A stretch of DNA of 64,000 nt from a virus (lineage: Duplodnaviria > Caudoviricetes), in the IMG/VR virus record IMGVR_UViG_3300035517_000383, positions 64,001-128,000 of that record. One strand, 5' to 3'. The notes beneath the pieces are model-generated. The model saw only the letters and a program-made list of their open reading frames with translations, did no database searches and was not told the DNA's origin. The position numbers and the translations under genes were made by a program. How positions within the stretch are numbered: position 1 is the stretch's first letter; each line of letters opens with the position of its first letter. This document shows, in pieces, positions 4,570-64,000 of this stretch.

Positions 4570-5718
4570 ATTTTTATAAGTAATCAAAAATATTTTATTG
4601 ATAGAATAAACTCTCATGATGCAAATAAATTTGTAAGTATATACCACTATTCTCATAGCGGCTTTAAAGGTGCAAAATTAAACTTAGGAATTTATAATAT
4701 AAACACTAAAGAATTAGTTGGTGTTTAGCAATGGGGTCGTGCGGCTTAGTCTAAAATAAGACTTGACAGATATGTTAAAGAATCAATTAATATAGATGAA
4801 TATTATGAATTAAATAGATTTTGCATGGCTGATTCAGAAGAAAGAAATAGTGAAAGTCAAGCTATTTCTTTAGGTATAAAATGGATTAAGAAAAATTGTT
4901 AGAATATTAGATTATTAGTCTCTTATTCTGGCAGAAAAGAGGGAAATTATGGATATATTTATTAGGCTACTAATTGGGAGTATTTAGGTTATTTTTTATC
5001 TTCGGCTTTTTGGCGGCTTGACGGAGAAGAAAGACATTAGTTTACCGCTTGGTAGAGATATAAGTTACATGGAAACTAGAATTTAAGTTTTGTTGATGCA
5101 CTTTGTGAAATGTATCACGATGTCCGTTAGATTGAGAGTAAGCAATTTATTTATATAATAAGACTTGACAAAACTCTTACTCCCGCATCGACAGTACTTC
5201 CTTATCCCAAGTCAACAACTGAATATCCTATAGAAACAAACTGTATAATTTATTAGGAGGACAATAAATATTTGGAATATTCTTATAATTTAGAAAAGGA
5301 ACATTTTTATTATAAACCTTATCGAGAAAAAAGAAAAATAGATACAACTTGTTATAAATATGCTGTTTATGAATTAGATGGGACTTTAGAGGGAATTTTT
5401 GATAAACTAGGAGATATTAAAATTGATGGTTATACCTCAGATGGAATTCGTGCAGCCGCAAAAGAAAACAGAAAATACAAGAAAAAATATTTTTTGAGAG
5501 ATTTAGATGCTTCTAATTTTCCCTTACAGTTAGATATAACCCCAATATGCTGGATAGATGAAATTCCATTTTATACAAGACCTGATATTGTACAATATCT
5601 TCAAATTTCTAGACAAGCGGTACAGCAAGCTTGCGTACGTAAAAGTAAAATAATTGGTGGAAAGAATGTTATCTGGGGAGAGGAAAATAAAAATGAGCGA
5701 GTTTCGCACGAAAATTAA
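4570..5718 (+). CDS. Mom-like DNA-modification (GNAT-fold) protein with C-terminal NUMOD1/HTH-like extension; 9 in-frame TAG read as Gln
   Basis: With TAG=Q: HYSH...ELVGVQQWG...YELNRFCMADSEERNSESQAIS...LLVSYSGRKEGNYGYIYQATNWEYLG...LPYPK, continuing in frame into ORF 5272-5718. RBS GAGGTG at 4557-4562; only an ATT start is available. Confidence 0.75.
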
Positions 5719-5887
5719 AGCTTATGATAAAGAGGGTAATCTTTATGATTGTGAAATGGTTATAAATAATTGTAAATTGTTTCATAATGAGATAGAACGA
5801 TGTGAAGAAGTCACATTTAACAAGGAAACATCAATACAGTTTATTATTGATAATGCTAAAGAATTATTAGAAAGTCAAGATAAATAA
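5693..5887 (+). CDS. Small hypothetical protein
   Basis: ATG at 5693 after GAGGA RBS. Confidence 0.55.
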   Translation: MSEFRTKIKAYDKEGNLYDCEMVINNCKLFHNEIERCEEVTFNKETSIQFIIDNAKELLESQDK

Positions 5888-5889
5888 TC

Positions 5890-5918
5890 TTGACTTTTTC
5901 TTTAGTTTATGATATAAT
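5890..5918 (+). promoter_or_regulatory. sigmaA-type promoter overlapping a terminator hairpin
   Basis: ttgact-17-tataat. Confidence 0.8.
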
Positions 5919-5949
5919 TGTTATAGAAAATAAAAAAGGAGGAAAGTGA

Positions 5950-7806
5950 ATGAGTTATAATGCAAATGATTTAAAAACTCTCTCTGCTGGCGCGGCCTAT
6001 AGAGAAAAATTGGGTATGTATCTTTCAGCAGATTTACAAGAGGCTATTGATTTAGGACTACGAGAGCTTCTTTATAATGCTCAAGATGAATATGAAGCTA
6101 CTCATAAAGATGGAAGTCAAGTATCTATTACAATAGATACTAAAACTAATAAAATTATTGTAGAAGATAATTTAAGAGGTATTCCGTGTTCAATCAGAGA
6201 TGATGGAATTAATTCCCTTACTGCTGCCTGTTTACTACCTCATTCTGGTGCAAAGCATAAGGGTGAAAATGCTTATAAACAGGCGGTAGGTGTCAACGGG
6301 CAAGGAATGAAAATTGTCTGTCATACTTCTAGCTTTTTTGAAATTGAAGTAAAAAGAGATGGAAATATTTACTACCAATCTTTTCATGAAACAGACGAAG
6401 GTGCTGTCCCCAATGATGATGTAAAAATTATAGGAAGCACTTCTTTAACTGGAACAAAAATTACTTATATTCCATCTCCCACTGTATACGGAAAAGATAC
6501 TAAAATTGATATTGACCAACTTAAAAAGAATTTAACGGACTTATCTTATTTTACAAAAGGATTCAAAATCATTTTAGTTGTAGATGGAATTAAAACTGAA
6601 TTTTATTCAGAAAATGGACTTTTGGACGGTCTAGATTCTACACTAAGATACCATAAGAATGCTTTATATTTTCAAAAGGATTACAATGATTGTAGTGTGG
6701 AAATAGCAATTCAATGGAATAAAAAGCATGGGGAAATTAAACCTTATGCAAATAATTTGTATGTAAGAGATGGTGGCGCATTTATTGTAGGTTTTAAAAG
6801 GTCATTAACAACCACGTTTAATAGACTAGCTAATAAAAATTTTTCAGGAGACTTAATTAGAAAAACATTAGAAGGATATGTTAGTGTAAAAGTTTCTGAT
6901 GTTCAATTTTCAAATCAGGCTAAAACTGCTTTAGCTAATAAAGAAGCTCAAACTGCAACTTCTGCAGCAACTAAAGAAGCTTTAGAAACTTTTGCAAATA
7001 TTTTTAGAGATGATTTTTTTGCAATTGTCGAGGTACTATCAAAAGAAGAAAAAGCTGATAAGGCCGCGGAGAAAGCAAGAGAAAATGCACTAAAACGAGA
7101 TAATGAAATTAATAAAGAACTAAAGAAAAAAACAATTTTAGCGGGGAAACTTGCTGATTGTAGATACCATGATGAGAAATCTCAATTGATTATAGTAGAA
7201 GGCTTGTCAGCATTAGGCAGTATAATAAAATCAAGAAATAGTGATTATACAGCCGCTTTTCCATTGACAGGTAAAATTCTCAATGTACTAAAAAGTACAG
7301 AAGATGAACAAATTTCAAACGAAGTATTAAAAAATCTCCATACTGCTATTGGAGCTGGTTTTGGTTGTAATTTTAATATGAAAAAGATGAGATATGGAAG
7401 AATCGTTTTTGTGTGTGATGCAGATGAAGATGGATATTCTATTATGTGTTTGCTTTTGGCTTTTATGTATAAATATTATCCAGAATTGTTAAGACAGAAA
7501 AAGGTCTATTGGGGACAGACACCATTGTTTAAGGTTACAACAAAACAAGATAAAGTTTATTATGCATATACAGAAAAAGAACTCGAATCATTACCAGATG
7601 GTGATATTTTAAGAGCAAAAGGAATTGGAGAACTTGAACCAGAAGATTTTAAAAATACTCTTTTTTCAAAAGAAGGTAGATATATTCCTTTTAGTTTTGA
7701 AGATGCAGAAAAAGCAAATTATTATTTTGATGTATTACTTGGAGAGAATATTAAAGAACGTAAGGAATACATTAGTAAAAATGCAGATTTTGACGCTTTT
7801 GATTAA
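5950..7806 (+). CDS. gyrB: Type IIA topoisomerase B subunit (GyrB/ParE)
   Basis: GHKL motifs ELLYNAQDE, DNLRGIP, HSGAK, GVNGQG; TOPRIM IVEGLSA, PLTGKILNV, DADEDG, KGIGE. Confidence 0.93.
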   Translation: MSYNANDLKTLSAGAAYREKLGMYLSADLQEAIDLGLRELLYNAQDEYEATHKDGSQVSITIDTKTNKIIVEDNLRGIPCSIRDDGINSLTAACLLPHSGAKHKGENAYKQAVGVNGQGMKIVCHTSSFFEIEVKRDGNIYYQSFHETDEGAVPNDDVKIIGSTSLTGTKITYIPSPTVYGKDTKIDIDQLKKNLTDLSYFTKGFKIILVVDGIKTEFYSENGLLDGLDSTLRYHKNALYFQKDYNDCSVEIAIQWNKKHGEIKPYANNLYVRDGGAFIVGFKRSLTTTFNRLANKNFSGDLIRKTLEGYVSVKVSDVQFSNQAKTALANKEAQTATSAATKEALETFANIFRDDFFAIVEVLSKEEKADKAAEKARENALKRDNEINKELKKKTILAGKLADCRYHDEKSQLIIVEGLSALGSIIKSRNSDYTAAFPLTGKILNVLKSTEDEQISNEVLKNLHTAIGAGFGCNFNMKKMRYGRIVFVCDADEDGYSIMCLLLAFMYKYYPELLRQKKVYWGQTPLFKVTTKQDKVYYAYTEKELESLPDGDILRAKGIGELEPEDFKNTLFSKEGRYIPFSFEDAEKANYYFDVLLGENIKERKEYISKNADFDAFD

Positions 7807-7808
7807 TA

Positions 7809-7837
7809 TTGACTTTTTCTTAGAAATATGATATAAT
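7809..7837 (+). promoter_or_regulatory. sigmaA-type promoter
   Basis: ttgact-17-tataat. Confidence 0.8.
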
Positions 7838-7865
7838 ATATGTGTAATAAAAAAGGAGTGATTAT

Positions 7866-10492
7866 ATGAGAGAAATTGTTACTGATGGAGAATTAGAAGT
7901 ATCTGATGCACTTCCAAATTTTTACGTTCCTTATGCATCATATGTAATTCAAACAAGAGCATTACCTGATGCGAGGGATGGCTTAAAAACAGGGGCGCGC
8001 TTTATTTTGTATGCTCAATACAAAAATAAAAATACTTTTAAAAACAAGAGAAGAAAAGCCACAGCTACAAAATCGGCAGCAATGATGTTCAGCCCACATG
8101 GTAAATAATATTGCCTGTTATACCTTTTCTCAGTAATGAGGGTGTAAAAGCTAACGGGGAAAGCTAAGGGTTTCTATGCTAATCCCGTGGGAATTAATTT
8201 ACTTCTTTTAAAGAAATAAATTAAAACCTGTACAGACTATCCTTGGAACGAAGGAGTAAGAGAACTATTTTCTCTGAAATGGGTATTTCTATTTTATAGA
8301 TAAGATATAGTCGATACCTACAGAAATGTGGGAATAATATGGATGCGAGTATTTATGGAAACGCAGTAAGAATGAGTCAAGATTTTTCCTTACGCTACCC
8401 TTTAATTGATACTCACGGTAATAATGGTAGCTTAATGCATAATAACGACTTTGCGGCCGATAGGTATTTGGAAATGCGAAGTGGTGAGATTGCAGATGAA
8501 ATGACTAATTTACTGCAAAAAGAAACTATTGATAAATGGAAACTTAATTATACAGAGGAAGAAGAATATCCAACTTATTTTCCAACAACATTCCCAAATA
8601 GTTTAGTAAATGGAAATTTTGGAATCGGAGTAAGTTTAGCTTCTTCTATCCCCTCTCATAATTTGAGTGAAGTTTCAGATGCTTTAATAAGACTATTAAA
8701 TAATCCTGAAATTGATTTTGATGAAATTTATTGTCCAATTGATTTTCCGACTGGAGGAACTATAATTAATTCCGAGGAAGTTAAAGAAAGTCATAAAATG
8801 GGAACTGGTAAGGCCGCCATTATTAGAGCGGATATCATATATGATGAAAATACCAATGAGTTAACAGCGATAAATTTACCATATATGGTATTTTCTTCTA
8901 ATGCGACAGTATCAATACAAAATGCAATAGACGAAGGAAAAATTTATGGTATTGAAAGCGTATTTGATGGAACAGATATGGATGGAGTAAAAATAGTCAT
9001 AAAATTATCAAAGAATGCTAATGTAAATAAGGTTGTTAAACTACTATATAAACATACTTTACTACAAAGTAGCTATGGAATAAATATGAATATGTTGGCA
9101 GATGGAAAATATCCGAAATGTTTTACTTGGAAAGAGATGATGGAAACATATTTGGAACATCTTTGTAATATACTTAAAAAATCATATGAATTTGATTTGA
9201 AGAAACTGAAACAAAGACTTCATATTGTAGATGGATTAATTATTGCTATTCAGAATATTGAAGAAGTAATTAAAATTATTAAATCATCTTCTTCGCCCTC
9301 TCTCGCAAAAACAAGATTACAAGAAAATTTTAATTTATCTGAGGAGCAAGGTCAAGCAATACTAAATTTAAAACTTTCAAGACTTGCTAATTTGGAATTA
9401 CAAAAATTAATTGATGAAAAAAATGAATTAAATAAGAATATTGAAAATATTAATCTTATTCTTACAGACGAAAACAAATTTAAAGAAATTGTTACAAGCG
9501 AAATTTTAAGAATTAAAAATAAATATGGAGATAAAAGAAAGACTAAATGTATAAATCTTGATTTTACTTCTGAAGATGAAGATGCAGAACCAATTGAGAA
9601 AAAAGAACTCTTAATTTACTATACAAATCTTGGCAACATTTATACACAGGAATCTACAACTCTTGTAAAAACTCGCCGCGGTGGCAAGGGTACAAAGATT
9701 AAACTTGCAAAAAATGAAGCTGTAATTAAGACTTTAAATGATGATAATTTTAGTTCTTTACTTGTATTTTCAAATCTTGGTAAGATGTACCATCTTTCAA
9801 TTGATGAATTACCTATAAATGGCAAGATTAATATTGCACAGCTTTTTGAGTTTGAAACAGGTGAAAAGCCTACAACTATAACCTCTCTCGCTCGAAAGAA
9901 CGAAATTAATTATTTTGTTTTTGTCACAAAGAACGGAATGATTAAAAAGACAGCAGCTTCTGAATATACAATTAAGCGTGGTAAATCCTTAAAAGCAATT
10001 AACCTTAAAGACGATGACCAAGTAGTTAATGTACTTTTTATGAATAATGAAAAAGTTAGTATCTTGACTAATAATGGAAATTGTGTTATAATAGAGACAG
10101 AAGAAATTAATCCGATTGGAAGAGCAACGGCAGGTGTAAAAGCAATAAAATTATCTCCAGATGATTATGTAATTGATGCTCAGACAGTATCCAACTCGGA
10201 TAAATATCTCATTACTATATCTGAACATGGTCTTATTAAAAAAGCAAGTTTGGATGAATTTCCTACTTGCGGCAGAGCAACAAAAGGCAAGAAGATTTCT
10301 GATACTCGTGAAAATGACCAGATAATTAAACATTTGACTTTAGCACAAGATTGTGATATAATAATTATAGTAAATCAAAAGAACATAAAAATTTCCACTT
10401 CGGAACTTAGAGTTCTTTCAAGAACCGCAACGGGCGTTAAAGCAGTAGACATTGCTGATACAGATGTTGTAGTTGATTTAATTGTAAGTTAG
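7866..10492 (+). CDS. gyrA: DNA gyrase A subunit, spliced: join(7866..8102,8342..10492)
   Basis: RALPDARDGLK; splicing restores SPHG|DASIY; active-site AADRY; beta-pinwheel CTD with GyrA-box TRRGGKG. Confidence 0.92.
8103..8341 (+). ncRNA. Group I intron (239 nt, ORF-less) in gyrA
   Basis: Exon ends in U (catggt) and pairs with gcc in P1; intron ends in G; P7 gacta/tagtc; removal restores PHGD. Confidence 0.9.
10334..10362 (+). promoter_or_regulatory. Intragenic sigmaA-type promoter in gyrA 3' end
   Basis: ttgact-17-(tg a)tataat, matching the intergenic promoters. Confidence 0.55.
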
Positions 10493-10507
10493 GAATAAGT
10501 CATTTAT

Positions 10508-10536
10508 TTGACTTTTCCTTAGACTTATGATATAAT
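10508..10536 (+). promoter_or_regulatory. sigmaA-type promoter
   Basis: ttgact-17-tataat. Confidence 0.75.
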
Positions 10537-10940: not shown

Positions 10941-10944
10941 ATAA

Positions 10945-12460: not shown

Positions 12461-13701
12461 ATGGCTATTGATTTACTTAACCTAGAACCGCAGAAGATAA
12501 GCAAAGATTTAAAAGGAAAATTTACATTGATTTATGGACAAGCTGGGTGAAACACGCCCCTTATTTAAGTAATTAAATAATGAAAATAGAGTAAAAAGCT
12601 GGAAACCTAAACTTTTTTTGAGCATGGTAATCAGAGCGGAAGTTATTTTTAAAAGAGATAACACGCGCAACGCATAGGTAAAATAACTTTTAAAATTTAT
12701 TTTTAAGAGAATAAAAACCCAAGAGACTCTACAACCAAACAATGGTTGAAAAGATATGCTGAACTTATAGGAAACTATAAGAAATAAAAGATAAAAAACT
12801 TTTATGATAACACAATGGTGGAAAGACCACACTTGCTTCTCAGTTTGACAAATGCTTGATAGCTGGTTTCGAGCAAGGAAGCAATGCCCTAAATAATGTT
12901 TATGTTCAACCAATTAAAACTTGGCAAGATTGGAAGTCTGCAGTTTCTCAGTTGATAAAGAAACCAGAACTACAATCTAAGTTTAGTACAATTGCAATTG
13001 ATACAGCCGATGAAGCGTTTAAACTTTGTGAAAAATGGACTTGCTCACAATATGGAGCAGAAACGATTAAGGATATTGCGGCATATGGTGGCGGATACAA
13101 AATCCTAGATGATAATTTTATGACACCTTTTAGAGATTTAGCTTACGCTGGGTATGGTCTTATTTTTGTTTCTCATGAAGCTGAAAAGACTTATGTAAAT
13201 GACAATGGTGAGGAGTATACAAAGATTGTTCCTGCTCTTCCAAACCGTCCTTTTGGTCTTATTAATAAAATGGTAGATTTAATAGGTTATATACGAGAAA
13301 TTCCAATAAAGAAAGAAGATACTATAGAACATAAGAGATATATGTTCTTTAGAGGAGATGAAAGATTTTTAACTAAATCTCGTTTTAAGTATATCACTCC
13401 TAAAATAGAATTATCATATAGTGCTTTTGTTGACGCAATTTATGATGCAATAGATAAGGAAGTTGCTCATAGTGGCGGCGAAGCAACAGAAGAAAAGAAT
13501 CCTTATTTGGAACGTTCATTTGATGAACTTATGGGTGAAGCAAAGGAGCTTTGGAATAAGGTAATTGCAAATGATGTAATTGAAGATGCTAAAAAGATTC
13601 TAGAAACAGAATTTGGAAAGCCTATTAAATTTAGTGAAATTGTACCAGAACAAGCGGATAAATTAAGTAAAGTCCTTATCTTAATTAAAGAATTGTTCTA
13701 A
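12461..13701 (+). CDS. AAA ATPase, Sak4/AAA_24-like recombinase; spliced: join(12461..12548,12818..13701)
   Basis: Splicing rebuilds Walker A YGQAG-C-GKTT; Walker B TIAIDT; LIFVSH; DLIGY. Confidence 0.85.
12549..12817 (+). ncRNA. Group I intron (269 nt, ORF-less) in Walker A of AAA ATPase
   Basis: P1 gggU/gccc, P7 gcata/tatgc, terminal G; splicing restores frame and GxxGxGKT. Confidence 0.9.
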
Positions 13702-18831: not shown

Positions 18832-18851
18832 TAGGAGGAATTTTCTTAAAA

Positions 18852-40700: not shown

Positions 40701-40713
40701 TTTTAATTGCCAT
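34738..40713 (-). CDS. Large tail/baseplate-hub (Tal-like) protein, ~1991 aa, many TAG
   Basis: Seven ORF-track fragments share one frame and each ends in TAG; YEKNLSNISRT..IVTKLYV and GINADYIKVGTLD are tail-protein-like; follows the Dit-like gene. Confidence 0.8.
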
Positions 40714-40725
40714 TCTTTTCACCTC

Positions 40726-52200: not shown

Positions 52201-55200
52201 TAATTTAGTTTCTTATTATATAAATACCAATTATACCTTCCTTTTATTACTTGGCTGCTGATTATCTTGTTGTAGTATAATTATACGATACCATAAGACT
52301 TCCCAGCAATTAAGGAGATTTCAAATATATTTCACAATATATTAGGGTTAATGATTAGCCGTACCAATGTTTTCCTTTTTATTCAGATGGTTCGTTATTC
52401 CATCCCGTTTATTAAACTGCTATAGGCTTTCCCTATAGAATAGACTATATCTTCTTCCTTTTCTCTAAAAGGAAGTATAATACTTCGGTATCACTTGATA
52501 CCTATCAGAGCCAATCCTGATAGTCGTTGGACGTTTTACTTAGAATTCTAAGCAACTTCGCTGCGAGTTATCCAATCTCTTACTTTTTTACTTTACCAAG
52601 CTGATTAGACTTGCCGCCGCCCTATCACTAAGGCGGTTTAGTAGTAAAAGCTCTAAGGATTTTCTCGTCAATTCATTATATTCTACTATAATAATTGCTT
52701 ATTATAGACCCCGACTTAAAAATAAGTTATTGAATATTTTTTCTTCATAGTCGTCTTTTGTTTCCTTCTAATTGATTGTCTTAAAATTCGTGCGTCTATT
52801 TCTGGATATAATTTTGTTAAGTTATTTATTTCATCATAATTAAAATATAATTTAATATTTTCATTTGATAACATATATTGAGTTTGTCTTTCTTTCTCGA
52901 ATTTGTCATCTTTATCTGTGTTAATAATAGGATTTTCGATTATTTTTTCAGCAACAGGACTTTTTCCTTCTCTTTCTGTTGGAAAAAAATGATTATCTGA
53001 TATTAAATCCCACTGCACTTCGATTTCCTTTCCACTTTCAATAAGATAACCGTTAAAAGAGTACTTTTCTATTTTATTAGTAGCCTCTTTATAATGACCA
53101 TTTAATTCTGCTTTAACTTCATCTATTTTTATATATTTAGTTTTATATGAAGTTTTGTTTTTATAGTTTAAAATCCAATTTAAGGCATCTGTCGAGATAG
53201 GATATTCTTCATACCAGAAAATACAATCCTTGTGTGTTACTCTTTGACCAGAAAGAACATTAAAGATACATCCTCTTGAAAAATTATTATCCTTGCAGAA
53301 TTGTGTTAAATTATTAAAAACTTTTGTTATATTTTTCTTTAAATCATAGCAAACAATATTTTTTAAATTTACACCTCTTAAATTATTCTCATTATAGTAA
53401 TTTGATTGGTCACTGTTTGATGTCGCCAAATTTTTATTATAAAAATGAGGATTTGGAATTTTATAATATTCCAAATAGTATTTTTCAAGCCATGATAATT
53501 CATTCCCATCCTTAGCGGCGGCCAAATAATGAACAGAAAAATTTTCTCTACCAAATTTTTTGAAAGCTTTTTGCAATTCTACTCCACTACCCTTATAACC
53601 ATGCCAATAGAATAGCTAATTAGAATTTACTTTTCCAATATACATCATTCCATTAATTTCATTTCTTACATAATAAATATAACCATAATCCATTTTATTT
53701 TTGCCTCCTGTAGTTTTAATCTGCGGTTTATCCGCTCACAGGATAAGTAAAAATAGAAAAATCCACATCTAATACTTTGAAACCAAAAACGAATCAAATT
53801 CTTATTTTTATAGACAAGGGGCCTCCTACGTTGTCTCAATCATTTGTGTTAAGAACGCAGAAGTTGTTTCAAAGCTCATACCTGCCGAGTTAGCAATCGC
53901 TTATAAAAATGTCTATTTTAGACATTTAGACTATATCTTTTTCAAATATCACTTCGGAATATTTATCCCTACTCTCTGTCGAGATAGTCGTTGAGCTTTA
54001 GTTTAAGATAATTATTTAAATTCTTTATTTCCCAATAAGGAACTTCAATTAAAGGTATATTGTTAGCTAGACAATATTCTCTTTTTATAGTATCTCTTCT
54101 TTTCTAATCTTCTATTGTGCCTAAATAAGCATCATTTACCGTATAATAATGTTGTTGTCCTTGAACTTCAATTAAAATTTCTTTTTTATCTTTTGTAAAA
54201 ACACAAAAATCAAAACTAAAAGATTTTAAATCTTCATATCTTTTTTGAAAAACAAAATCATATCCATTGTTAATTAAAAAATTTCTTACTTTCTATTCTA
54301 ATAGTGACATTTTAGAATAGCATTTTGGACAACCTCTTCCAAGTTCAGAAATCCTTTTAGAAAAAACAAAACCACAATTATGTTTTATTAAAGATTTATT
54401 ATTTGTTCCAGTAAACTATAGTAATTCATATTCATTATTTCCAACTTGATTTAAAAATTCTTGACCCTGTTTAAAATCGAATTTATTATAGACTTTAAAA
54501 CAATTGGGACATATTTTACCATCAAAATTTCCTCGAACTTTTTTTTCAAAAATATGGCCGCATCTTTTACATTTAAATTTAGAATAGTCATTAGTACCTT
54601 TCCATTCTAACAATTCAAGATAACCTTTTTTCAGTTCTTTTTGTATATGATTATAGATTTTGTTTTTATCTTTTTCACAGTTACTACAAAAAAATTCCTT
54701 CCGTCCTATTATTACAGCTTCAATATTATTAATTATTTCAATCTTGCCGCACTTATTGCATTTAATTTTACAGGACTTTCTCAATCCTTGATAGTTTAAT
54801 AAAACAAAATCTGAATTTGGAAATAACAATTCTAATCGTTCTTGTAATCTCTCCTTATTCCATCTTGAATATGGTTTATAGCATTTAGAACATAATGTTA
54901 TTTTAGTTAATAAATTTCTTGCATTTTTATAATTATAAATTTCACCACATTCTATACATTTATATTTGATAGAAGATTTTTCACCATTAAATTCTAAAAT
55001 TTCTATTTTATTTTTATTAAATACTCTTTTTAATGTTTCTACAAAATCATACATATTTTTTCTCCTTTTATCTTAAACTCTTAGCTGCTGATTATTCATT
55101 ATTTAGTACTTAGGTTAGCAATTCCATATACCATACTATTACTTTTTTCTACTTTCGTAACCATTATGGTGTAATAGTCATTAGAATGTTCCAGCAATTC

Positions 55201-56928
55201 AATATTTTAAACGCCGATTGACGCTGTTTTACTCATAGCATAAGCAATATCTTCAACACTAGCAGCGGCATTAGCAGCAAGCTCAGAGTAAACATCTGTT
55301 ACGTGAGAGCCTTCTTCCATTTCTAATTTAAACCCGCGCAAGGCCGCCGTCATTTCAGAAGTGGCTGTACTAAAATCTAGACCAGCCAAAGTAGCAAGTT
55401 TCATTGTGTCTTCTGTAAGTGATAAAGCTTCATTTGTATCAAGGCCTTGTTGGTAGAATAAAGCAGAAGCTTCAATAACGCTTTTAGTTTCCTGTCCTAA
55501 ATTTTTTGCCATATCGGCATAATCACTATAACTATCCCACATTTCTGATACAGAATAATCAGTAACCATTGCAATGGATGCAAAAGCACTATCTAATTCT
55601 TTTACGTCCTAAAATGTTTCTTGTATAGCTTGTTTTACTAGTCTCCATGCAGACCCAATTGAAAGTATTTGTTTTACAGTGTTTTGTAAATTACTAAATG
55701 CGTTGTTAACATTTTCCTAAGCTTCTGCCCATTCTAAGTTTGCCTAAACTGTGTCATGTGCGGCACCTCTAACGTTTTCCTGAGCCTCTACATTTCTGTC
55801 TAGTTGCTAATTAAAGTTCTCAACATTCTATCCAGCTAATGCCATTGCAGAGGACAAAGTACTTTCCAATTGTTGTGTAATCTATTCAACTTGTTGTAAA
55901 TTCTAAGTTAAAGACTAAACATCACTATTATTAACGAGATTTTGTCCTGCTTCACTTAGTTCAAATTCACCTTGTGCATTACTTTGGCCAAGAACCATTG
56001 AATTTCTTGCTCTAGTAATTTGTCCTTTAATACCACTTTCTGTTGCAGCATTAGTCATTGCATTTAAATCTCTAGTAAAGTCCTCTTGGAGTTCATCTGT
56101 ACTTGTAATAGCAACTCCATATTTTTTCATTTCTGCTTGTAGTCTTGCAACAGCATCAGCCGCAGTTTTGCCGCTATTTCCAATTTCTTTTAATACCTTA
56201 GAATACTCTTCTGTTAATGCAGACTAAACATTGGATGCTTCTACCGTCCTATTAGCAGTTACTCCAGTACCACTTCTTAAGTCTGTTCCTCCGTGAGTAC
56301 CCCTTCTGTCAGTTGCGGCATAAGTATATTTATTAGCATCAACAGTTACATTCTCTGCGTATGATTGAGCATTTGCACTTTTAGCAACTTGTTTACCAAT
56401 GCTTTTTCTTGCGGCTTCTTCTTTTGCTTGACCGACCTTTTTAATTGCTGCTTCAAGCTGTTCTTGATTTTTAATTTCACCAGTAATAGATTTAATTTCT
56501 TTATCGTTTAGTTTTAAACTTTTAGCTTGTTCAGTCAAACTATCTTTAGCTGTCTTAACTAAATCTTCTTGTTTACTGTTTAGATTGTCAAGCTAGGTTC
56601 TATATTTCTGAACCTCAGCGGCATTTACATTGAAATTACCAGCTTGATTAACTTGTCTTAATCCAACCTAAATTTTAGCAATAACTGTATCAAGTTTATC
56701 AAATTGTTTACCAAAATTTTGCACGTCTTTGCTTCCAGAAAATCCTTTTTGTACATGAGCAAGAAGTTCTTGCACCATTTTATCTGCCGAAGCAATATCT
56801 TTATCTACTTGAGTAAACATACTATTCTATGCGCCAGCCTATGACATAGCCTGACGAACTTGTTTTAAGGCATTAAGTATATTACTAACATCTAAATTAC
56901 CTTTTATAGTATAATTTCTATCTGCCAA
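43264..56928 (-). CDS. Tape measure protein (~2624 aa) in 7 exons: 55221-56928, 53817-53899, 52358-52374, 51795-52011, 50463-50489, 49336-49356, 43264-49065; many TAG
   Basis: Exons total 7875 nt (divisible by 3) and rebuild the TP901-type TMP core ..AMSKTASIANSAGMSFETTSAFLTQMIETTQEAPENIGTAMKTIIARF..LDRNTQRYIATTAAGSRQQSRFIALMEDYDRT..; TTG start after AGGTGA. Confidence 0.88.
49066..49335 (-). ncRNA. Group I intron 6 of TMP (270 nt, ORF-less)
   Basis: P1 AUAGCU/GGCUAU, P7 variant GGUCA/UGACC, terminal G. Confidence 0.88.
49357..50462 (-). mobile_element. Group I intron 5 of TMP (1106 nt) with HNH ORF in 3' (P9) region
   Basis: P1 UCGU/GCGA, P10 UGCUG/CAGCA, P7 GACU/AGUC, terminal G. Confidence 0.88.
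49365..50204 (-). CDS. Intron-encoded tandem HNH endonuclease + NUMOD1 (279 aa, several TAG)
   Basis: AHRLVAEYFL..VHHKDGNRLNNH..NLEWV; AHILV..IDHIDGNKLNNH..NL; IEGNIIKIFPSIAAAA. Confidence 0.82.
50771..51652 (-). CDS. Intron-encoded tandem HNH endonuclease + NUMOD1 (293 aa, no TAG)
   Basis: VHHKDGCPRNNALDNLEWV; INHIDSNRGNNRLSNL; QYDLEMNLIQVFPSTSEAA. Confidence 0.88.
   Translation of the reverse strand: MVEGKPVIINGKETQYFLFKNGDLYNENTHRIAQGAINQGYIRFTLEIDGETIGIYKHQLMARLFIPNPENKPIVHHKDGCPRNNALDNLEWVSQEENLNKIINPVEHKITEKLTSEELEEEEWKPLQNSKYEVSNMGRIKNLQTGKITFGSRNKNSGYIRWTYNDLDGNRQEIQAHRAVYMVFHPDEKINVINHIDSNRGNNRLSNLENVSQRENVIKSYYQTKTKQTKLTGQYDLEMNLIQVFPSTSEAARSLGLNNCSNLSRAMKTGGISHGYYWREISKAEYDEFLNKK
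51707..51735 (-). promoter_or_regulatory. Early-type sigmaA promoter inside intron 4 upstream of its HNH gene
   Basis: Minus strand TTGACT-17-(TG A)TATAAT. Confidence 0.75.
52012..52357 (-). ncRNA. Group I intron 3 of TMP (346 nt, ORF-less; putative C-A 5' splice pair)
   Basis: AAUUGCUGGGAA, AAUCAGCAGCC, P7 GACUA/UAGUC; GC|A junction restores GTAMKT. Confidence 0.8.
52375..53816 (-). mobile_element. Group I intron 2 of TMP (1442 nt) with GIY-YIG ORF in P1 loop
   Basis: Exon end CCCU pairs with GGGG after the ORF stop; P7 GACUA/UAGUC; terminal G; restores QEAP|ENIG. Confidence 0.85.
52716..53693 (-). CDS. Intron-encoded GIY-YIG homing endonuclease (325 aa, 1 TAG)
   Basis: MDYGYIYYVRNEINGMMYIGK..YKGSG..AFKKFGRENF..LEKYY..FYN; RBS AGGAGG. 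Confidence 0.85.
53900..55220 (-). mobile_element. Group I intron 1 of TMP (1321 nt) with nuclease ORF in P6 loop
   Basis: P1 AGCGU/GCGUU; AAUUGCUGGAA; AGUUUAAGAUAA/UUAUCUUAAACU stem brackets the ORF; P7 GACUA/UAGUC; terminal G. Confidence 0.87.
53963..55054 (-). CDS. Intron-encoded Zn-ribbon-repeat + PD-(D/E)XK/Vsr-like endonuclease (363 aa, 4 TAG)
   Basis: Repeated CxxCG..CxxC units, then S..E..V..FL..FDF..LIEVQGQQHY..RD..KREYC..NNIPLIEVPYW. Confidence 0.8.
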
Positions 56929-56942: not shown

Positions 56943-58706
56943 TTATATTGATAAAGCTGAAATAGAAATTAATTTTAAAATGTTCTCGATTTCAGTTTCT
57001 TTTATTTTATGAATTTTTTTTGTACTCTATCCCACGACATTATTTCTTCCTGTGTCGTTAATTTCTTTTACGGTATAAAAATCTCTAATAATATTCGTAT
57101 TATTTAATACTTTTGATTTCTCTAATATATCAGCATATCTCTAAGCTAAAATAGCCGAGGCGGGATAGAAATATCCAGAAATTTTGAATATAGGGCTATA
57201 TAAAATGTCCTTTTCTTTTATTTTTTGCAATGCCCTATTTTTCATTCCTTCGTAAGTTGCTGCTCTTATCTGACCCAAATCCGCCTAAGATAAAACTGCA
57301 TTTATATATGTTTTATCTTCGTCATATAACTCTATTAAAGAAGTTAATATTTCAATTTGCTATACTGATAATAGCTAAACAGCTTCTTTAATTGATAAAT
57401 TATCTATATTTAAATTTTTAGTTGAATATAGTCCTGTATTTATGCCTTTAGTCTTTCCTGTAATATTTATCAAATTAAACTCTTTATCCTATATTCCGTA
57501 ATAATGACCCTTTATCTTTATTATTTCATCAACACCAGATTTAGCTTTCCCCATAACTGTTGGATTGAGTGAGCGTTCTCCAACACTAGTTGTTTTAATT
57601 CCGACAATTTTGTTTATATAAGTAGTTAATATTTCTCCATAATCACCTTTGAATGCTCTACTTATATAACCCTTATTTTCTTTGTTTGAAACATAAGTAA
57701 TTTTTACAAGTTCATATCCTGATGCAATTAATTTTTTATGCATTTTTTGCCAATATTCTTTGTTATTTAATATTTTTTCTAATTTGCCTATTAATTTCTT
57801 ACTTCTGCTAAGTTTTGATTTTACGGCGCGTAAATATTCCTATTGAATTGGAATAACCACATATTTTTTAAACATCTCATAATTTTTTGAAAATTCATCT
57901 ATCTACTTTTTATAATCTTCGGTATCTAAAGACTATGTTTTATTGTTTTTTTTATTCTATTTGTTATCACATATATTTTTTATTGCTGTTCCAGTGGCTT
58001 CTCTTAATGCTTCATTCAATTTTTTACCGAATTCTTCAAAATTATTAGCATTAATTGGAGTAGTTTGGAGATTATTTTCTAATTGTGTATTGAGTGACTA
58101 AATTTCTTTCATATTTTTATTTAAATTTACAATATCATCGTTTGTTATATAAAATTCGCCCTATGTAATAGTAAAACCTCCAGCCTTACTAATTAAAAAC
58201 AATAAATACGCAAAATTTTTTTCATTATCAAAGTCGTCTTCATCTACAATTTCTTTGAGTTCCTGTCGAATGCTATCTTTGCTTCCTTTTATTTTTACCT
58301 CATTGTCTGTATTTAAAAATTTTTCTTCTCTACCAAAATAAAATTGACTAAAATAATTATTAAAATCATTAGCATATTTGTTTGCAACCTGTCTTAATTT
58401 ATTTATATTATTACAATAATCAACCGATGGTTTTTTAAAATTACAATCGGGATTGTCTTTTTTAATATCCTCAATTAATGTTTTCTCTACATTTAACAAA
58501 GTATTTAAAGGAATTTTTATTAATTCTTCCTTGTCGTTAAAATTTGTATTGCTTTTTTCTTGATGCAAGGCCTCGTTTGTAAGATTTTTTTCATATTTAA
58601 GAGTTTTATCACATTTTAAAAAATTATCAAATTTTTCTTTGTTTTTTATATAAAAACCGTATGGTTCGGAAGATTCTTCTATTTGTCCGAAATTATAAAT
58701 ATTCAT
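56943..58706 (-). CDS. Hypothetical protein upstream of TMP (~587 aa, many TAG)
   Basis: Fragments 58161-58721 and 57489-57743 share a frame; RBS GGAGGTG; TAA at 56943. Confidence 0.7.
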
Positions 58707-58724
58707 TTTTCTCACCTCCAAAAA

Positions 58725-58751
58725 TAAAAATGAGCGACCTTTGCCGCTCCT
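58725..58751 (-). terminator. Rho-independent terminator
   Basis: GAGCGGC-AAAG-GTCGCTC-ATTTTT on minus strand. Confidence 0.65.
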
Positions 58752-59653
58752 TAAATATAATCTCCAGTTAATTCCGTATCTAAAAAAGTTATATATGCTA
58801 TAGTCTACCCCTCTCTCCTTCTATTTTCATCTGGATAACCAGTAAAATAGAAATCACTAACAGTAGACATATCATAACTTTTTCCCAATTTCACTGATAA
58901 ACTCGAAGATAATTTAATTTTTGGCATCTCCAATATCGCAGTGGTCACTTCTCCACTCTTTTCATCCTTTACACTCATTTTCCCATTTAATCTGAGAAAA
59001 CCATTAAAAAGTCGGTTTCCGACTTCAATTACCTTAATCTTATCTTCATAAGTAAAAGTATAATCGACCAAAACATTTCTATATTGCTCTTGAAAGAAAA
59101 TTCGATTTTGATAAATTTCAAAATCTCTAATTCGCAGACCCGTATCTGCATCGTAACAGAAAATCCATTTTGTCTTTGAAGGCAGCAATGGTTTCAGCAT
59201 CAACTCTGGTCTACGTCCCATTGGCAATGGTTCATTATATGGATTAGGTTGTGCGCCAATCTTACAATCGCAATTATTTGGTCTATATTTCAAATCAACA
59301 TAGCAATAGTTACCATCATCTATTGTATGCAAAGTCTCATAATACTATACCGATTTGATATTCGGTTCCTTTAACTATGAGTTACTTAGTAATGCCCAAC
59401 TTGTAGGAGATAATACTCCATGAGTAATAGCAAAACTAGCTTCTCTATCAATTTCCCAATTTACTAATGCCGGATTATGATAGCCACCACTTGCTTGTAC
59501 AGTTCTCTTTTGTTCTTGGAACTATGCAATCTCAGCGGTAGAAAAAGATAATATCGTTTCATTAATATCATATTTTCGTTCACCAATTTCAAGTGGATTA
59601 TTTAGCCTTAGAGTAACGTCATAAAGTTCTTTCATACCAGCAAAATTCTCCAT
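58751..59653 (-). CDS. Divergent tail-tube-family paralog (300 aa, several TAG)
   Basis: MENFAGMKELYDVT resembles the GIKEVADV N-termini; GGYHNPALVNWE; LEMPKIKLSS. Confidence 0.65.
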
Positions 59654-59715
59654 TAGATATTTCACCTCCTTTTACTCCTTCTTTTAATAAAGTAAAGATT
59701 GTTAGTTTCTAGTAT

Positions 59716-59745
59716 AAAAAAATAAGACGACCTTGCGGCCGCCTT
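59716..59745 (-). terminator. Rho-independent terminator
   Basis: AAGGCGGCC-GCAA-GGTCGTCTT-ATTTTTT on minus strand. Confidence 0.65.
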
Positions 59746-59751
59746 AAAAAA

Positions 59752-61149
59752 TTAATAAATTTCTGGATTGTCGATTCCAGTTGTCTCTGCAATTTCGATT
59801 TGTGTAGGTGTATATGTATAACGAGATTTCTGTGGTACAACTCTTGTGCCGCCATGTACGTTATCATCATCTACATCAAACTGTTTCAATTCAATCATAA
59901 TATCATTTGGAGGAGTTAGAACATCAATGCTCATACTAAAAGTTGTTGGGTCGCCCTCTGCTTCTAATGTTAAGCTTGTATCTGATGATACTTGTGCTCT
60001 ATGGATTGTGAATTGATAACGCTGGTCTTTACCTGTTTTCTGGTCACGAATATAGGTTTCACCAACAATTTTATAAGTCTCAGGGAATGTTTCTGCATCA
60101 ATTACCAATGTTTTTCCAAGAATACCATCATCAGTACCCTCCTTGCGTTTTACAGTACGTGACCACTTATAATAAATAGTACCAATTTTAAGTTTAAAAG
60201 TATCGGAATCAGTTACTCTATCAAAGTTCTTATCATAGTGTTCGTCTGAATCATTGTCCCAACCTTGAATGAAACCTTCGTCAGAAACACTAAGTAAAGG
60301 AAGCATTGTCTTTGCATCATAATAGATTACATAAGAAGAAGTTTGGTCATCACGATAGTATTTAAGTAAATTCTCTTTCTGCTCTTTTGTACTGATAGTA
60401 AGTCCATTTCTATCTTTCACAATGCACTTTTCCATTCTATCAATTACCTCTAAATCATACATTTCAGTTTCAATTGTGCCAAGTTTATTTAACTCATTAA
60501 TGTAAGTTAAAATCTTATCACAAACTACCTGTGGCATAGCCTATTGAGAATTTCTTTCTTCTTCATCTGTTGGTATCATTGCTTTTGCATATTCTTCATT
60601 AGAAAGCCAAATTCTTTTAAAATAACCTTTTCTTAATCGTGTTCTTGCTTCTTCAATTTGCGGCTCATCTTCATTATAATTATTCTTCCAGTAAATTGTA
60701 CTGTTGCCACCAGTTGAAATGTTTTCTTCGGTTGCGGCCTTAAAAATAATTTCCCATTCTTCATCAGTTAAAGCTGGGGAAGGATAAGCTTTTGTAGAAT
60801 AATGTAACTTTCCATATTTGTTAGCCATATTAATTTTAACAATTGCAGACGTATAAGGAGAAAGCTTGGCTTGAAGTTCTCCGCCCCAAATCATGCTCAT
60901 AGAAGCAGGAGAAAACAAAGCATCTTCAAGAGACAAGGTGATTTCCTTACCAAAATTCCAAGTAATTAATTTTTTGTTACCTTTACCACCCTCAGCACTA
61001 ACTTTCTCTGCCGATTTTTCTATTGTAGAAACCTTTAAAGTATCAAGAAGAAGGACTGGTGTATAGAATTCTTCGTCGCCCACTGTCGTAATACTGTAAA
61101 AAACTACGTCAGCCACTTCTTTAATACCATATTTTTGGAATAAGTTCAT
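59752..61149 (-). CDS. Tail-tube/major-tail-family protein (465 aa, 1 TAG at 60541)
   Basis: Two ORF-track fragments joined by TAG; YGIKEVADV..DTLKVSTIE..LEDAL..LTLEAEGDPTTF. Confidence 0.75.
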
Positions 61150-61162
61150 TTAATTCACCTCT

Positions 61163-61558
61163 TTAATTTGTTTCTTTTATCTACAAAATAATTTCATCAT
61201 CAGAAGTATTTATTACTATGTTCTCTGGTGAAATTATTTTAGATGTAGATTTAATTTGTAATTCTCTTTGCTATCCCGTAGGCTCACTCTTTACACCATC
61301 AACTAAATAATATTCAATTTGCGGCTAGTAAACTTTATAATAAAGTTTTACTACTAAATTTGATTCATCAATTAAACTATTATTACTTACTGTAATAGAT
61401 GTAATATTAGATATTGGATTAGCCTCGTTATCATCTAAATAATACACCTGATTATCTTCAGGACTTACGATTTCTATCTTTGTATATGTATTATATTGCT
61501 TACCTTCGTTATACCAAGATTTTGTTATTACTGGAATATGTTCTGGAGTATCATCACT
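61163..61558 (-). CDS. Start-less 131-codon frame, possible frameshift extension of upstream tail protein
   Basis: Open with TAG=Q from the A of the upstream TGA to TAA at 61163; no RBS or start seen. Confidence 0.45.
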
Positions 61559-63810
61559 CAGTCAGACCCATCAATATCTTCATATGTTGGGTCTGTGGGC
61601 ATCACCCCATCACTAGGAACTATTTCAGTACTACCACTAGCATAATTGTCGTACTTCTTAGTAGAAACATCGTACTGAGTAAGTTTCATCATTACACCAT
61701 CCTCTCTACGTAATACTTTCAGATTCATAGTGAAAGTTGTTGGGTCACCTGCTGCTTCTAGTGTTAAATTAGTATCACTACTCATTTTACAAAGTGGAAT
61801 CTCAAACTAAAGTCTTTGGTCTTTACCATTATCTCTCGCACGAGCATAAGTTTCTCCCACTAAACGATAGGTACCGGGATAATGAATTGCATCTACAATT
61901 ACCTAATGTCCAAGTGTTGTATATTCAGGCGCACGACTACGAGTCCATTTATAATAAACCTCATACTGTTTAATTACACGAAGATTTCCTTGAATAATTT
62001 GCCCATTCTTCCTATAATATTCATCAGTATTTGGCTCATAAGGTTTCATTGTTTTGGGGTCAATAAATACTGTTATTTCAGATTGAGCATATTCTGGCAT
62101 ATAACGATAATTACCAAGACGAATATTACTATCAGTATTGATACAAAACGTCTGACTAGCCTTACATTTTTCCATTCTATCTAAATAATAAACATCTTCA
62201 ATACCGCTGTTAATAGGATAAATTAAATCTTGTGGAGGAACATTGTTATTATTCCAGTCAGAAATAATATAGAAAGTACCAACTTTAACTCTTGTTATAT
62301 AAGTGCTATTAATATTACTTAATGCTGTTGGAACAGACCAGTCAAGATTTAAATAAAAATCAATTTTTGAACCATATTGTTCGTAGAACCAACCATAACT
62401 TTGCTCTGCAACTTCTTGATTTTTTAGCTTATCATATGAAAAAATTTCTTTATCACTTGATTTATCCCAAGAGTCTGTAGATTCATTATGAACCGTCTCG
62501 TACAACCCTTGTCTAGCAATCATAATTTCTTTATTAATATTGTCTTCTGGTACTCTAAAACGTACACTTGCATTTTCAATATAATAGCAATCTTGCTCTC
62601 CTTCTAAAGAAGTCATTTTCAAATCCGTTTTATTCCAAAGATAGCTGTAAATTCTGTCATTCGCATCAGCACAATAAATATTGTTTTCACCCAATTCTTG
62701 ATAATAACATTGTTCATCATTATCTGTTTTTGGTGCAAACTTATACGTTTTATAATCAAAATCTCCAAAAGCATCAATTATTATTTCTGCTTTTTCTGGA
62801 CGTTTTTTATTTACCCATTTGTTTAGTTGAAGTTCTATTTCAGAATATTTCCAAAGAGGTTCTTCATCGTCTTCGTTTTCAAAAATCTCTTTTCCTAAAG
62901 GACAAATTGATGAGGTACCTTCTAATTCTCCAGTTCCACTCTTCTTAAGATATTTATAAACCCCATCATTTTCAACATAACGAATAAGCTTAATTTCTCC
63001 ATCACATGGACATTCAAAAATTACATAACCTTCTTCTAAGTAACTATTGATTATATCTAAGCAAGAAATCATATCATCATTATTAATAACAGAATCTATT
63101 AAACTATCTTTTTCATTCAAACTAAAATAAGAGTTTGAATTTTCTTCATCCTCAATTAAACTCAAAGATTGTCTTATCTTAGAAACAATAGTTGCTGTTG
63201 ATGGATGAGAAGAATCCTGTCCCAAAAGTCCATTTTGTGCGGCCTTAAGCAATTTTGTATAAGCATTCTTTACTAAATCATTATTCTTAATATATTTATT
63301 ACCATTAGTATCTATAAAAACACCAATATTATCAAAATTATAAGTCCAAAGTAAAGAATTTTCTTCTTCATCATAAATTTTCACAAAAAGAGACTCATAA
63401 CCCGTAATAATATTGCTGGAAATTTCCGCTAAAGAAACAACTTCCTTCTTAAGATATAGTGTTCTTCCATATCTATCCTTTGGATATACATAAGGATTCC
63501 AAACACCGTAAATCTTAGAATTCTTTGTGCCAAATTTTCCTCCCCACATTAAACTTTGACTTGCAGGAGTGTAAAGAGCATCTTCCAAAGTAACAGAAAT
63601 TTCCTTACCGTAATCCCACATAATAAGCTCTGGATTGCCCAAGCCGCCGCGAGCAGAAGTCTGCTCGGCGGTTTGTTCAACTGTAGAGACTTTTAATGTG
63701 TCAAAGTATAACACTGGAACATATATTTCATCGTCATTTTTATCAAGTTCAATAGCATAAAGCGTTACATCTGCAACTTCTTTAATACCATATTGGTCAA
63801 ATATGTTCAC
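61558..63810 (-). CDS. Tail-tube-family protein with large internal insertion (750 aa, 2 TAG)
   Basis: YGIKEVADV..DTLKVSTVE..LEDAL..DRMEKC..YYKWTR..PGTYRLVGETY..LTLEAAGDPTTF; reads through TAG to TGA at 61558. Confidence 0.78.
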
Positions 63811-63826
63811 TTATTTTCGCCTCCTT

Positions 63827-64000
63827 TTACTCACTTAACACTTCTGTTGAGCCATCTTTGATTTCAAAGTTACCTTCATCATTCATTACCATTTTATCAG
63901 CAGTCTCATAAGTAGTAATTTCCATCATAAGTCCACTGCGCGGGCGTGCAACTTCAAGTTCAAGGTTAAAAGTTGTAGGGTCACCTGCTGCTTCTAATGT
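63827..64000 (-). CDS. C-terminus of another tail-tube-family paralog (truncated by window)
   Basis: TLEAAGDPTTFNLELEVARPRSGLMMEIT...*. Confidence 0.7.
   Translation of the reverse strand, partial: TLEAAGDPTTFNLELEVARPRSGLMMEITTYETADKMVMNDEGNFEIKDGSTEVLSE

Follow-up and report, generated by a model that had tools for sequence, protein, structure and literature searches.

The 64,000-nt stretch of DNA analyzed here (the window; bases 64001-128000 of one 152,102-bp IMG/VR viral contig, IMGVR_UViG_3300035517_000383) belongs to a siphovirus-like gut phage of 152 kb, in which TAG is a sense codon. Comparison with related phages indicates that its evolutionary meaning is glutamine (Gln), and the bias in its use between gene modules is strong and conserved in relatives. 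We suggest with high confidence a dual code, in which in-frame TAG is Gln, read by a phage tRNA with the anticodon CUA, and is kept from the genes translated before this tRNA accumulates. The phenomenon as such is already published; new here are the lineage, an unusual suppressor tRNA and a family-level recoding gradient. The standard code misreads about a fifth of the genome, and all tail genes, the DNA modification gene mom and a resolvase gene look fragmented in it.

Open reading frames (ORFs) were called on the whole contig (GC 30%, CheckV completeness about 92%) with a greedy ORF picker under four genetic codes. A portal query of IMG/VR detected 186 relatives, and 78 loci were kept; a Dit peptide-pattern query for related loci retrieved no relatives. 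Four complete relatives (G001, G002, G003 and G005; L086-L119), with 49-60% protein identity and ranging from the standard code to heavy recoding, were compared with the phage under study (G000). For the TAG sites, stop-to-stop frames with X at TAG were aligned by BLASTP and the codons were then read back.

TAG as a glutamine codon

The coding density of the whole contig is 0.693 under code 11, 0.883 with TAG as a sense codon and 0.728 with TGA as a sense codon, so that the comparison of codes 15 and 11, proposed in a preliminary description of this DNA, favors the TAG recoding. Between code 11 and TAG as sense the gene number falls from 194 to 161 and the median length rises from 126 to 180 aa. 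The minus strand at window 32.7-63.8 kb holds short ORFs under table 11 and long ORFs with TAG as Gln (662, 1994, 827, 1932, 573, 592 aa and others), each with a TAA or TGA stop, which is TAA in the first four. The preliminary description had merged fragments into genes of 662, 827, 1991 and 2624 aa. The first two were recovered and the third is the 1994-aa ORF with a different start; the fourth is not one ORF, its length being approximately that of the tape-measure pieces summed (1932 + 573 + small exons).

Full-length Mom, RuvC, GH25/M23 lysin, Dit, tape-measure and virion genes emerge once TAG is sense, and in the alignments to relatives homology continues on both sides of the in-frame TAGs, of which the genome has about 250, up to 28 in one gene. 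Frames are interrupted by TAG only, never by TAA or TGA, and the terminators of 147 genes are 116 TAA and 31 TGA. TAG has nearly disappeared as a terminator: it plausibly still ends some three early genes, and in each of them a back-up stop follows 1-3 codons on. In gyrA, which has no internal TAG, the table-11 stop TAG is followed by GAA TAA (window 10490-10498), and gyrA and two other early genes look like cases of former TAG stops with back-up stops. TAG stands 1-3 codons before TAA or TGA at window 3842-3856 and at genome 13642-13974 (tandem TAG TAG). An artefact, with the TAGs being assembly errors or pseudogenes or the host itself using code 15, is barely conceivable: TAG alone, not TAA or TGA, breaks the frames, independent assemblies show TAG or CAA/CAG at identical sites, the early genes avoid TAG, and the probable host has release factor 1 (RF1).

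At 62 TAG sites of G000 the 78 loci carry Gln in 28.2% (CAA, the commonest codon, 22.2%; CAG 6.0%), TAG in 11.6% and Asp, the next residue after Gln, in 6.3% (site-weighted). True Gln codons are 32% conserved, the same value as 28.2/(100-11.6) at the TAG sites. With substitution frequencies measured on the same alignments, the log-likelihood (lnL) of Gln leads that of Glu by 45, Lys by 46, Ser by 54, Ala by 70, Tyr by 76 and Leu by 89. In the reverse direction, the TAGs of the relatives fall on G000 Gln at 0.034 per site and on any other residue at 0.010 or less.

Pairwise comparisons led to the same result. G003 uses the standard code (density 0.845 vs 0.859, 15 TAG stops, 17 tRNAs, no CUA tRNA), and 55 of 158 TAG sites aligned to it are Gln (35%; Glu is next, at 16), compared to 38% for true CAA/CAG sites. 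At TAG vs true Gln sites the fraction of Gln is 0.46 vs 0.47 in G001, 0.33 vs 0.30 in G005 and 0.24 vs 0.31 in G002; for a sigma-like protein described below it is 0.38 vs 0.39 among 28 full-length database homologues.

Five motifs named beforehand as having TAG at a conserved Gln (asterisk) were all found in their places: IY*ATNW of Mom (4963), ALD*A of RuvC (29068), DIH*ASEDG of GH25 (34154), and RNT*RY (51801) and TT*EAP (53826) in small tape-measure exons. Each aligns to CAA/CAG (or TAG) in relatives: G003 has Q at Mom 4963 and at RNT*RY and reads TTQEAP, while the GH25 site is CAA in G002 and corresponds to the Q of the WQYT motif in Listeria phage Gp26 (PDB 4jz5). Homologue alignments had been proposed as a check of the Gln preference at TAG, and the preference is present, with an lnL gap of at least 45.

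Distribution of TAG between gene modules

The TAG share, that is the TAG fraction of Gln-type codons, was compared between four blocks of the genome.

Genome 1.8-39.1 kb, minus strand: block A, auxiliary genes and tRNAs; 1.4 TAG per 1000 codons, share 0.05.
Genome 39.1-54.7 kb, minus strand: block B, fibres, giant proteins and lysis; 8.0 TAG per 1000 codons, share 0.23.
Genome 54.8-93.6 kb, plus strand: block C, replication; 2.1 TAG per 1000 codons, share 0.064.
Genome 93.5-149.2 kb, minus strand: block D, tail and head; 10.7 TAG per 1000 codons, share 0.24.

Out of frame, TAG shows no such differences, with 20-28 per 1000 positions throughout the four blocks. The partition by gene function suggested earlier was confirmed as a strong bias (blocks A and C vs B and D, Fisher odds ratio 0.20, p = 1e-21), but not as a clean split, since it is graded both ways. 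The six large replication genes nrdD, gyrB, gyrA, helicase, recJ and dnaE were correctly described as having no internal TAG; according to codon counts they hold 0 TAG among 136 Gln codons (P = 1e-16 at the late-gene rate), and DnaE and GyrB never carry TAG, relatives included. The same contrast of A/C and B/D is kept in G001, G002 and G005, with late-block TAG shares of about 0.08 in G001, 0.19-0.23 in G005 and 0.40-0.45 in G002 and shares of 0.01-0.13 in their A and C blocks. The family thus forms a natural series of late TAG shares (0, 0.08, about 0.2, 0.24 and 0.40-0.45), which is material for the study of stop-codon capture.

The replication and nucleotide-metabolism block of the window (3-28813, plus strand; Pfam, codon counts) is TAG-poor; it and the resolvase gene following it include these genes, in window coordinates.

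3-2129, plus strand: NrdD, no internal TAG.
4564-5718, plus strand: Mom-family DNA modification gene (PF25680, E=4e-24), inside the TAG-poor block.
5950-7806, plus strand: GyrB, no internal TAG.
8339-10492, plus strand: GyrA, no internal TAG.
12856-13701, plus strand: AAA_24 ATPase, no internal TAG.
16088-17776, plus strand: DnaB-like helicase, no internal TAG.
17773-18831, plus strand: replication-block gene with one TAG, at codon 272 of 352; homology continues 80 codons past it.
18822-20597, plus strand: RecJ, no internal TAG.
22182-26099, plus strand: DnaE, no internal TAG.
26113-27030, plus strand: replication-block gene with two TAGs, at codons 159 and 251 of 305; homology flanks each.
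28816-29541, plus strand: RuvC-like Holliday junction resolvase whose N-terminal segment is endonuclease-like (phrog_159, E=3e-20).

The mom frame has 9 TAGs, 7 of them after the first ATG (4825), with a share of 0.47, and 5 of these 7 sites are Gln in G003. Although open from 4564, the frame offers none of the start codons ATG, GTG and TTG ahead of codon 88; the start is probably non-canonical, because the Pfam match starts at profile position 77, at the first ATG. The resolvase has 3 TAGs (share 0.38), and those at 29068 and 29239 align with Q, TAG and Q in G001, G002 and G005, respectively.

The tail and virion genes of the window are listed below.

32738-34726, minus strand: GH25 muramidase and M23 peptidase (PF01183, PF01551); 12 TAGs, share 0.48.
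34738-40722, minus strand: 1994-aa tail protein; 26 TAGs, share 0.31.
40726-43209, minus strand: Dit (PF05709, phrog_202), 827 aa; 13 TAGs, share 0.34.
43264-56928, minus strand: tape-measure gene, in pieces.
43264-49062, minus strand: tape-measure C-part, 1932 aa; 28 TAGs.
49365-50204: HNH endonuclease gene within the tape measure; 5 TAGs, share 0.62.
53963-55054: HNH endonuclease gene within the tape measure; 4 TAGs, share 0.29.
55207-56928, minus strand: tape-measure N-part, 573 aa; 13 TAGs.
56943-63810, minus strand: further virion genes, among them one of 592 aa with 12 TAGs and a share of 0.50.

The GH25/M23 protein, at the end of the tail module, is a probable tail-associated lysin. Orthologues of the 1994-aa tail protein carry 3, 28, 0 and 8 TAGs in G001, G002, G003 and G005, and the Dit TAG at 42577 is Q in all four relatives. 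The other virion genes of 56943-63810 encode proteins of 304 aa (4 TAGs), 465 aa (1), 94 aa (3) and 750 aa (2). The tape-measure interruption (window 49066-55220) consists of the HNH genes and small exons between the two large pieces, and where ORF 55207-56928 ends, the PhageMin_Tail domain breaks off, at position 106 of 201 in the profile.

Genes outside the window encode the portal, the phrog_4088 protein (probably the major capsid protein), an 871-aa virion protein, tail fibres, giant proteins, an Amidase_2 endolysin and the phrog_5767 protein, annotated as a sigma factor. The latter, a sigma-4-like protein of 398 aa, has a TAG share of 0.48, and its orthologues carry 5, 23 and 6 TAGs in G001, G002 and G005 (in G002 within 392 codons). 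No Pfam or PDB sequence match to it was detected, and Foldseek on the AlphaFold model (pLDDT 80) returned no match; VIA-align of residues ~249-348 with sigma-H, ECF sigma-L and SigB (sigma region 3-4) gave Z of 6.1-6.3. We treat it as a putative sigma factor, a label to be taken as tentative.

The suppressor tRNA and the proposed dual code

The window has no tRNA gene, in line with the preliminary description, which saw no suppressor tRNA there, and the search for a CUA tRNA elsewhere in the genome, which it proposed, detected one.

Genome 27510-27603 (L002:8510-8603), minus strand: tRNA with anticodon CUA, 94 nt (ARAGORN; Rfam tRNA 47.7 bits, gathering 29).

This gene lies 36 kb upstream of the window, inside a TAG-poor block, in a cluster of seven tRNA genes (25.6-27.9 kb, minus strand): Leu(CAA), Leu(UAA), Met, Ile(GAU), Lys(UUU), CUA and an interrupted Gln-type tRNA. 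Its acceptor, D and T arms closely match tRNA-Gln(UUG) of G005, and it has U1-A72 and A73, as in the tRNA-Gln genes of Ruminococcus callidus, indicating that it derives from tRNA-Gln.

The host is probably Ruminococcus, judged by the endolysin, which has 52 relatives in bacterial genomes, nearly all of Ruminococcus/Oscillospiraceae (55-62% identity), with three related copies in the complete chromosome of R. callidus ATCC 27760. This strain has prfA (529 bits, above the curated cut-off) and two GatB genes, and the GlnRS-type anticodon-binding domain PF03950 was not found in its genome, with controls as expected. UAG would be a true stop in the host if the host is of the R. callidus kind. Because the likely host clade has no glutaminyl-tRNA synthetase (GlnRS), charging of the suppressor is expected via the host glutamyl-tRNA synthetase (GluRS) and subsequent amidation by GatCAB. 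GatCAB picks out tRNA-Gln by U1-A72, and the conserved U1-A72 of the suppressor fits this route. A probable host without GlnRS raises the concrete question of how an amber suppressor becomes Gln-tRNA via GluRS and GatCAB.

We suggest that the host reads the standard code with RF1 and that genes translated before the suppressor accumulates could not tolerate TAG, which would be the reason for the avoidance of TAG by NrdD, gyrase, helicase, RecJ, DnaE and block A. The genes translated later would use TAG like any sense codon, at about 24% of the Gln codons; this set would comprise tail, head, Mom, resolvase, the intron homing endonucleases and the sigma-4-like regulator. That the endolysin and the virion proteins of greatest abundance avoid TAG would be as expected of a slow codon competing with RF1. 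We infer the expression timing, the charging route, the RF1 competition and any adaptive role as a timer.

Several points weigh against this proposal. Genes were assigned as early or late by their function and strand block, and the partition is leaky, with at least seven replication-side genes carrying 1-2 internal TAGs with homology on both sides; standard-code replication genes and recoded structural genes do occur here, in this leaky form. The Amidase_2 endolysin (genome 49238-50470) has 0 TAG among 9 Gln codons, and none is present in the gene of the adjacent holin-like protein (117 aa, 2-3 membrane segments). The CUA tRNA differs from a normal tRNA-Gln by a 17-nt variable-arm hairpin, C33 and G3.U70; U33 is near-universal in tRNAs, and G3.U70 is the main identity element of the alanyl-tRNA synthetase. 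The domain search of the phage genome found no release factor, in agreement with the preliminary description of the window, and no Glu/Gln-tRNA synthetase, which rules out a code-change module of the Jade type (see below). Another suppressor tRNA could be absent from the contig, given its completeness of about 92%.

These features of the CUA tRNA raise the question whether TAG, although a sense codon, is today translated not, or not only, as Gln: Glu could be inserted if GatCAB fails to amidate, Ala via G3.U70 (with A73), or Ser, Leu or Tyr via the long variable arm. C33, the two enzymatic steps that Gln needs in a probable host clade without GlnRS, and the fact that substitution patterns give the long-term meaning, which would lag behind a recent change of tRNA identity, speak for this alternative. 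We consider it improbable, as the likelihoods given above favor Gln over Glu, Ser, Ala, Tyr and Leu, and four independent comparisons give the same rate of Gln at TAG sites as at true Gln codons. The tRNA also agrees with phage and host tRNA-Gln in its body, in U1-A72 and in A73, and a sister lineage has the canonical G3-C70. The type II reading of the variable arm (Ser, Leu or Tyr) is ruled out by the substitution likelihoods and the tRNA-Gln-like body.

The hairpin itself is not accidental, because the stem is changed on both sides between G000 (GGGAAA-GAGA-TTTCCC) and the G001-type gene (GGAAGG-GAGA-CCTTCC), with the GAGA loop kept. The G001-type CUA gene with the long arm was found in four IMG/VR contigs; the wider search for long-arm suppressors detected G001-type loci only, a further match being due to chance, inside a coding region.

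Under the proposed dual code, the lysis genes deserve a separate comment. Recoding in late and lysis genes had been expected from known phages; the phenomenon is established and the structural genes are recoded here, but the endolysin and its holin-like neighbour are not. A bias of recoding toward the lysis cassette was not found, TAG being abundant only in the GH25/M23 protein of the tail module; a single TAG is present in each of two small membrane proteins encoded upstream of the endolysin, and the endolysin, TAG-free in G000, carries 6 TAGs in G002. The probable major capsid protein, the 871-aa virion protein and a 219-aa head protein of the late blocks are TAG-free as well (joint P = 3e-6 with the endolysin and the 117-aa neighbour). 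The TAG-free virion proteins, presumably the most abundant ones, prefer CAG, with CAG:CAA of 10:2 (probable major capsid, L005:9236-10333), 15:4 (871-aa protein, L005:3266-5881) and 6:1 (L005:10360-11019), and the rest of the AT-rich genome prefers CAA. TAG-free endolysin and abundant virion proteins, together with TAG-rich regulator, Mom, resolvase and endonucleases, set a limit on the lysis-timer model.

The partition could also have arisen without any function in timing or lysis control, by drift of TAG, through CAG to TAG transitions, into any place that tolerates a slow codon, with translational selection keeping it from the genes expressed before the tRNA and from highly expressed genes. 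This account concerns the purpose only and agrees with the proposed mechanism; we regard it as possible but on the whole doubtful. TAG placement along the recoded genes is uniform (KS p = 0.22) and the base after TAG is the same as after CAA/CAG (+4 context, p = 0.32), both in favor of drift; the base before in-frame TAG is T in 50%, vs 32% before CAA/CAG (chi-square p = 2e-5). The absence of TAG from the CAG-preferring capsid and 871-aa proteins, the endolysin that is free of TAG here and yet recoded in G002, and a recoding degree that is continuous among relatives (late-block share 0 to 0.45) likewise agree with it. On the other hand, the sigma-4-like regulator carries many TAGs in all of the recoded relatives, and Mom, the resolvase and the intron endonucleases are rich in TAG despite their place in or next to TAG-poor DNA, a pattern that looks like gating gene by gene. 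TAG as a slow codon spreading where tolerated fits the avoidance by abundant proteins and the smooth recoding range; gene-specific gating still has room, given the consistent TAG load borne by the putative regulator, Mom and the resolvase.

Interrupted tRNAs and relation to known recoded phages

Across the phage family, inserts of 46-51 nt were detected in tRNA anticodon loops (ARAGORN intron mode and Rfam).

Genome 27810-27935 (L002:8810-8935), minus strand: seventh tRNA of the cluster, with insert and Gln-type body (ARAGORN/Rfam).
L092:1450-1589, L100:13505-13631, L100:15293-15425 and L112:1781-1914: other insert-bearing tRNAs.

In relatives, such inserts interrupt the CUA suppressor of the G001 type, one tRNA-Leu of G005 and two tRNAs of G002; taking out the insert turns one of the G002 tRNAs into a CUA tRNA. 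The seventh tRNA of G000 has a D-arm identical to that of the host tRNA-Gln-CUG, and uninterrupted homologues of it were not found in viral contigs. The inserts have in common an outer stem and a linker, a 5-bp stem whose 7-nt loop is of the GGCAG type, then a single nucleotide and, at the 3' end, an invariant CCA, a shape resembling a tRNA acceptor/T minihelix; 9 of 10 predicted pairs show compensatory changes. They are not group I introns, because they are too short. Placing the insert end just after CCA restores a sensible anticodon loop, suited to the tRNA body, in five of five cases (CUA, UAA for Leu or UUG for Gln). The ochre (UUA) reading of the interrupted tRNA given by ARAGORN is unlikely, since TAA ends 116 of the 147 genes and the CCA-end rule yields the host-like Gln loop CTTTGAC. 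We found no papers describing such inserts.

The 24-nt leader TTGAAATAAGCYGTCTTGAATTTA stands directly 5' of both Gln-type tRNAs (genome 27607-27630 and 27937-27960, minus strand; L002:8607-8630 and L002:8937-8960). It is ruled out as a genome-wide promoter and is uninformative on timing, as it occurs only twice.

The interrupted Gln-type tRNA, a near-cognate tRNA-Gln(UUG)-like gene, or a host tRNA-Gln could potentially be the decoder of TAG, with the CUA tRNA being a decaying gene. C33 and G3.U70 in the CUA tRNA, the second Gln-type gene 300 nt away with an identical leader, and the heavy recoding of G002, which has no uninterrupted CUA tRNA, point in this direction. We find it very unlikely, since the in-frame TAGs, in their number and with up to 28 per gene, need efficient decoding, the CUA tRNA scores 47.7 bits with all four helices intact, and G001-type and G002 genomes give CUA loops after insert removal. 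With decoding by the CUA tRNA retained, we propose, tentatively and as a rather unlikely possibility, that TAG decoding in the family rests on non-standard tRNA biology, namely an extra-arm suppressor charged via GluRS/GatCAB and, in sister phages, an insert-interrupted suppressor. If true, with cuts of the RNase P/Z type and sealing by phage RNA ligases, the inserts would represent tRNA intervening sequences of a new class, and their processing would be an extra step gating the change of code.

Code-15 gut phages with TAG as Gln and late-gene recoding are known among crAss-like, Garnet and Topaz phages (Borges et al., 10.1101/2021.08.26.457843), with TAG recoding in crAss-like phages described (Yutin et al., PMC7886860) and proven by metaproteomics (Peters et al., PMC9523058). 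The phage studied here shares with these three groups TAG as Gln, a phage tRNA(CUA) encoded in standard-code DNA, a standard-code host, TAG-free replication genes, TAG-rich structural genes and intron homing endonuclease, and the occurrence of standard-code and recoded genomes among close relatives. The data agree with the model published for such phages, in which the suppressor tRNA of the phage works in a standard-code host and TAG is tolerated only by genes translated after this tRNA has appeared. Unlike these groups, it is a 152-kb siphovirus-like phage with a probable Ruminococcus (Bacillota) host, not Bacteroidota. In crAss-like phages the lysis genes are the most biased families (10.1101/2021.08.26.457843), whereas here the amidase endolysin is TAG-free, and the suppressor tRNA has a long variable arm. 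The same paper reports an intron endonuclease that is preferentially recoded.

Another parallel is phAss-1 of the proposed Phassvirus, a 136-kb phage among Clostridia gut phages related to Enterococcus phage EF1, with about 28% of ORFs using TAG as Gln, tRNA-Sup(CTA) genes, no phage aminoacyl-tRNA synthetase (aaRS) and a clade of recoded and standard-code genomes (PMC10607447). The present phage is likewise a large Clostridia gut phage with TAG as Gln, a suppressor tRNA, no phage aaRS and a mixed-code clade; it has one CUA tRNA among seven tRNAs, unlike phAss-1 with three CTA tRNAs among 36, for which no long-arm or interrupted suppressor tRNA is reported (PMC10607447). The two are related only distantly, below genus level: the portal is 30% identical to that of phAss-1 (22-26% to large siphoviruses of Enterococcus, Bacillus, Lactococcus and Brevibacillus), and no near-identical phage is deposited, the best nucleotide match to phage records being 258 bp at 68-69%. 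The Borges, phAss-1 and theta-ribozyme papers make no mention of a long variable arm, C33 or G3.U70 in a suppressor.

Block-wise dual coding is modelled by Mgcod (10.1101/2022.06.29.495998). As in that model, the genome has standard-code-compatible blocks and blocks needing the reassigned code; unlike it, single recoded genes (Mom, RuvC) stand in a standard block and TAG-free genes in recoded blocks, and the unit of recoding is the gene, not the block, because recoded and TAG-free genes intermix. The TGA-recoded Jade phages have a code-change module of suppressor tRNA, TrpRS and RF1 (10.1101/2021.08.26.457843). The decoding machinery here is, as in Jade, in standard code and upstream of the recoded genes, but it consists of the tRNA only.

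The auxiliary block contains a BrxL-like Lon protease (L001:12165-13601), which adjoins the tRNA cluster in the TAG-poor block together with an RNA repair set of an Rnl1-like ligase (L001:16711-17835), an AAA_33 kinase (L001:18800-19720) and a second RNA ligase (L002:1564-2562). These genes could counter anticodon nucleases or have a role in tRNA processing. A weak match to an HDV-like ribozyme (RF02682, 31.6 bits vs gathering 44) was seen at genome 25841-25911 (L002:6841-6911, minus strand), directly 3' of tRNA-Leu(UAA), a tRNA-adjoining position known for theta ribozymes (PMC10879173).

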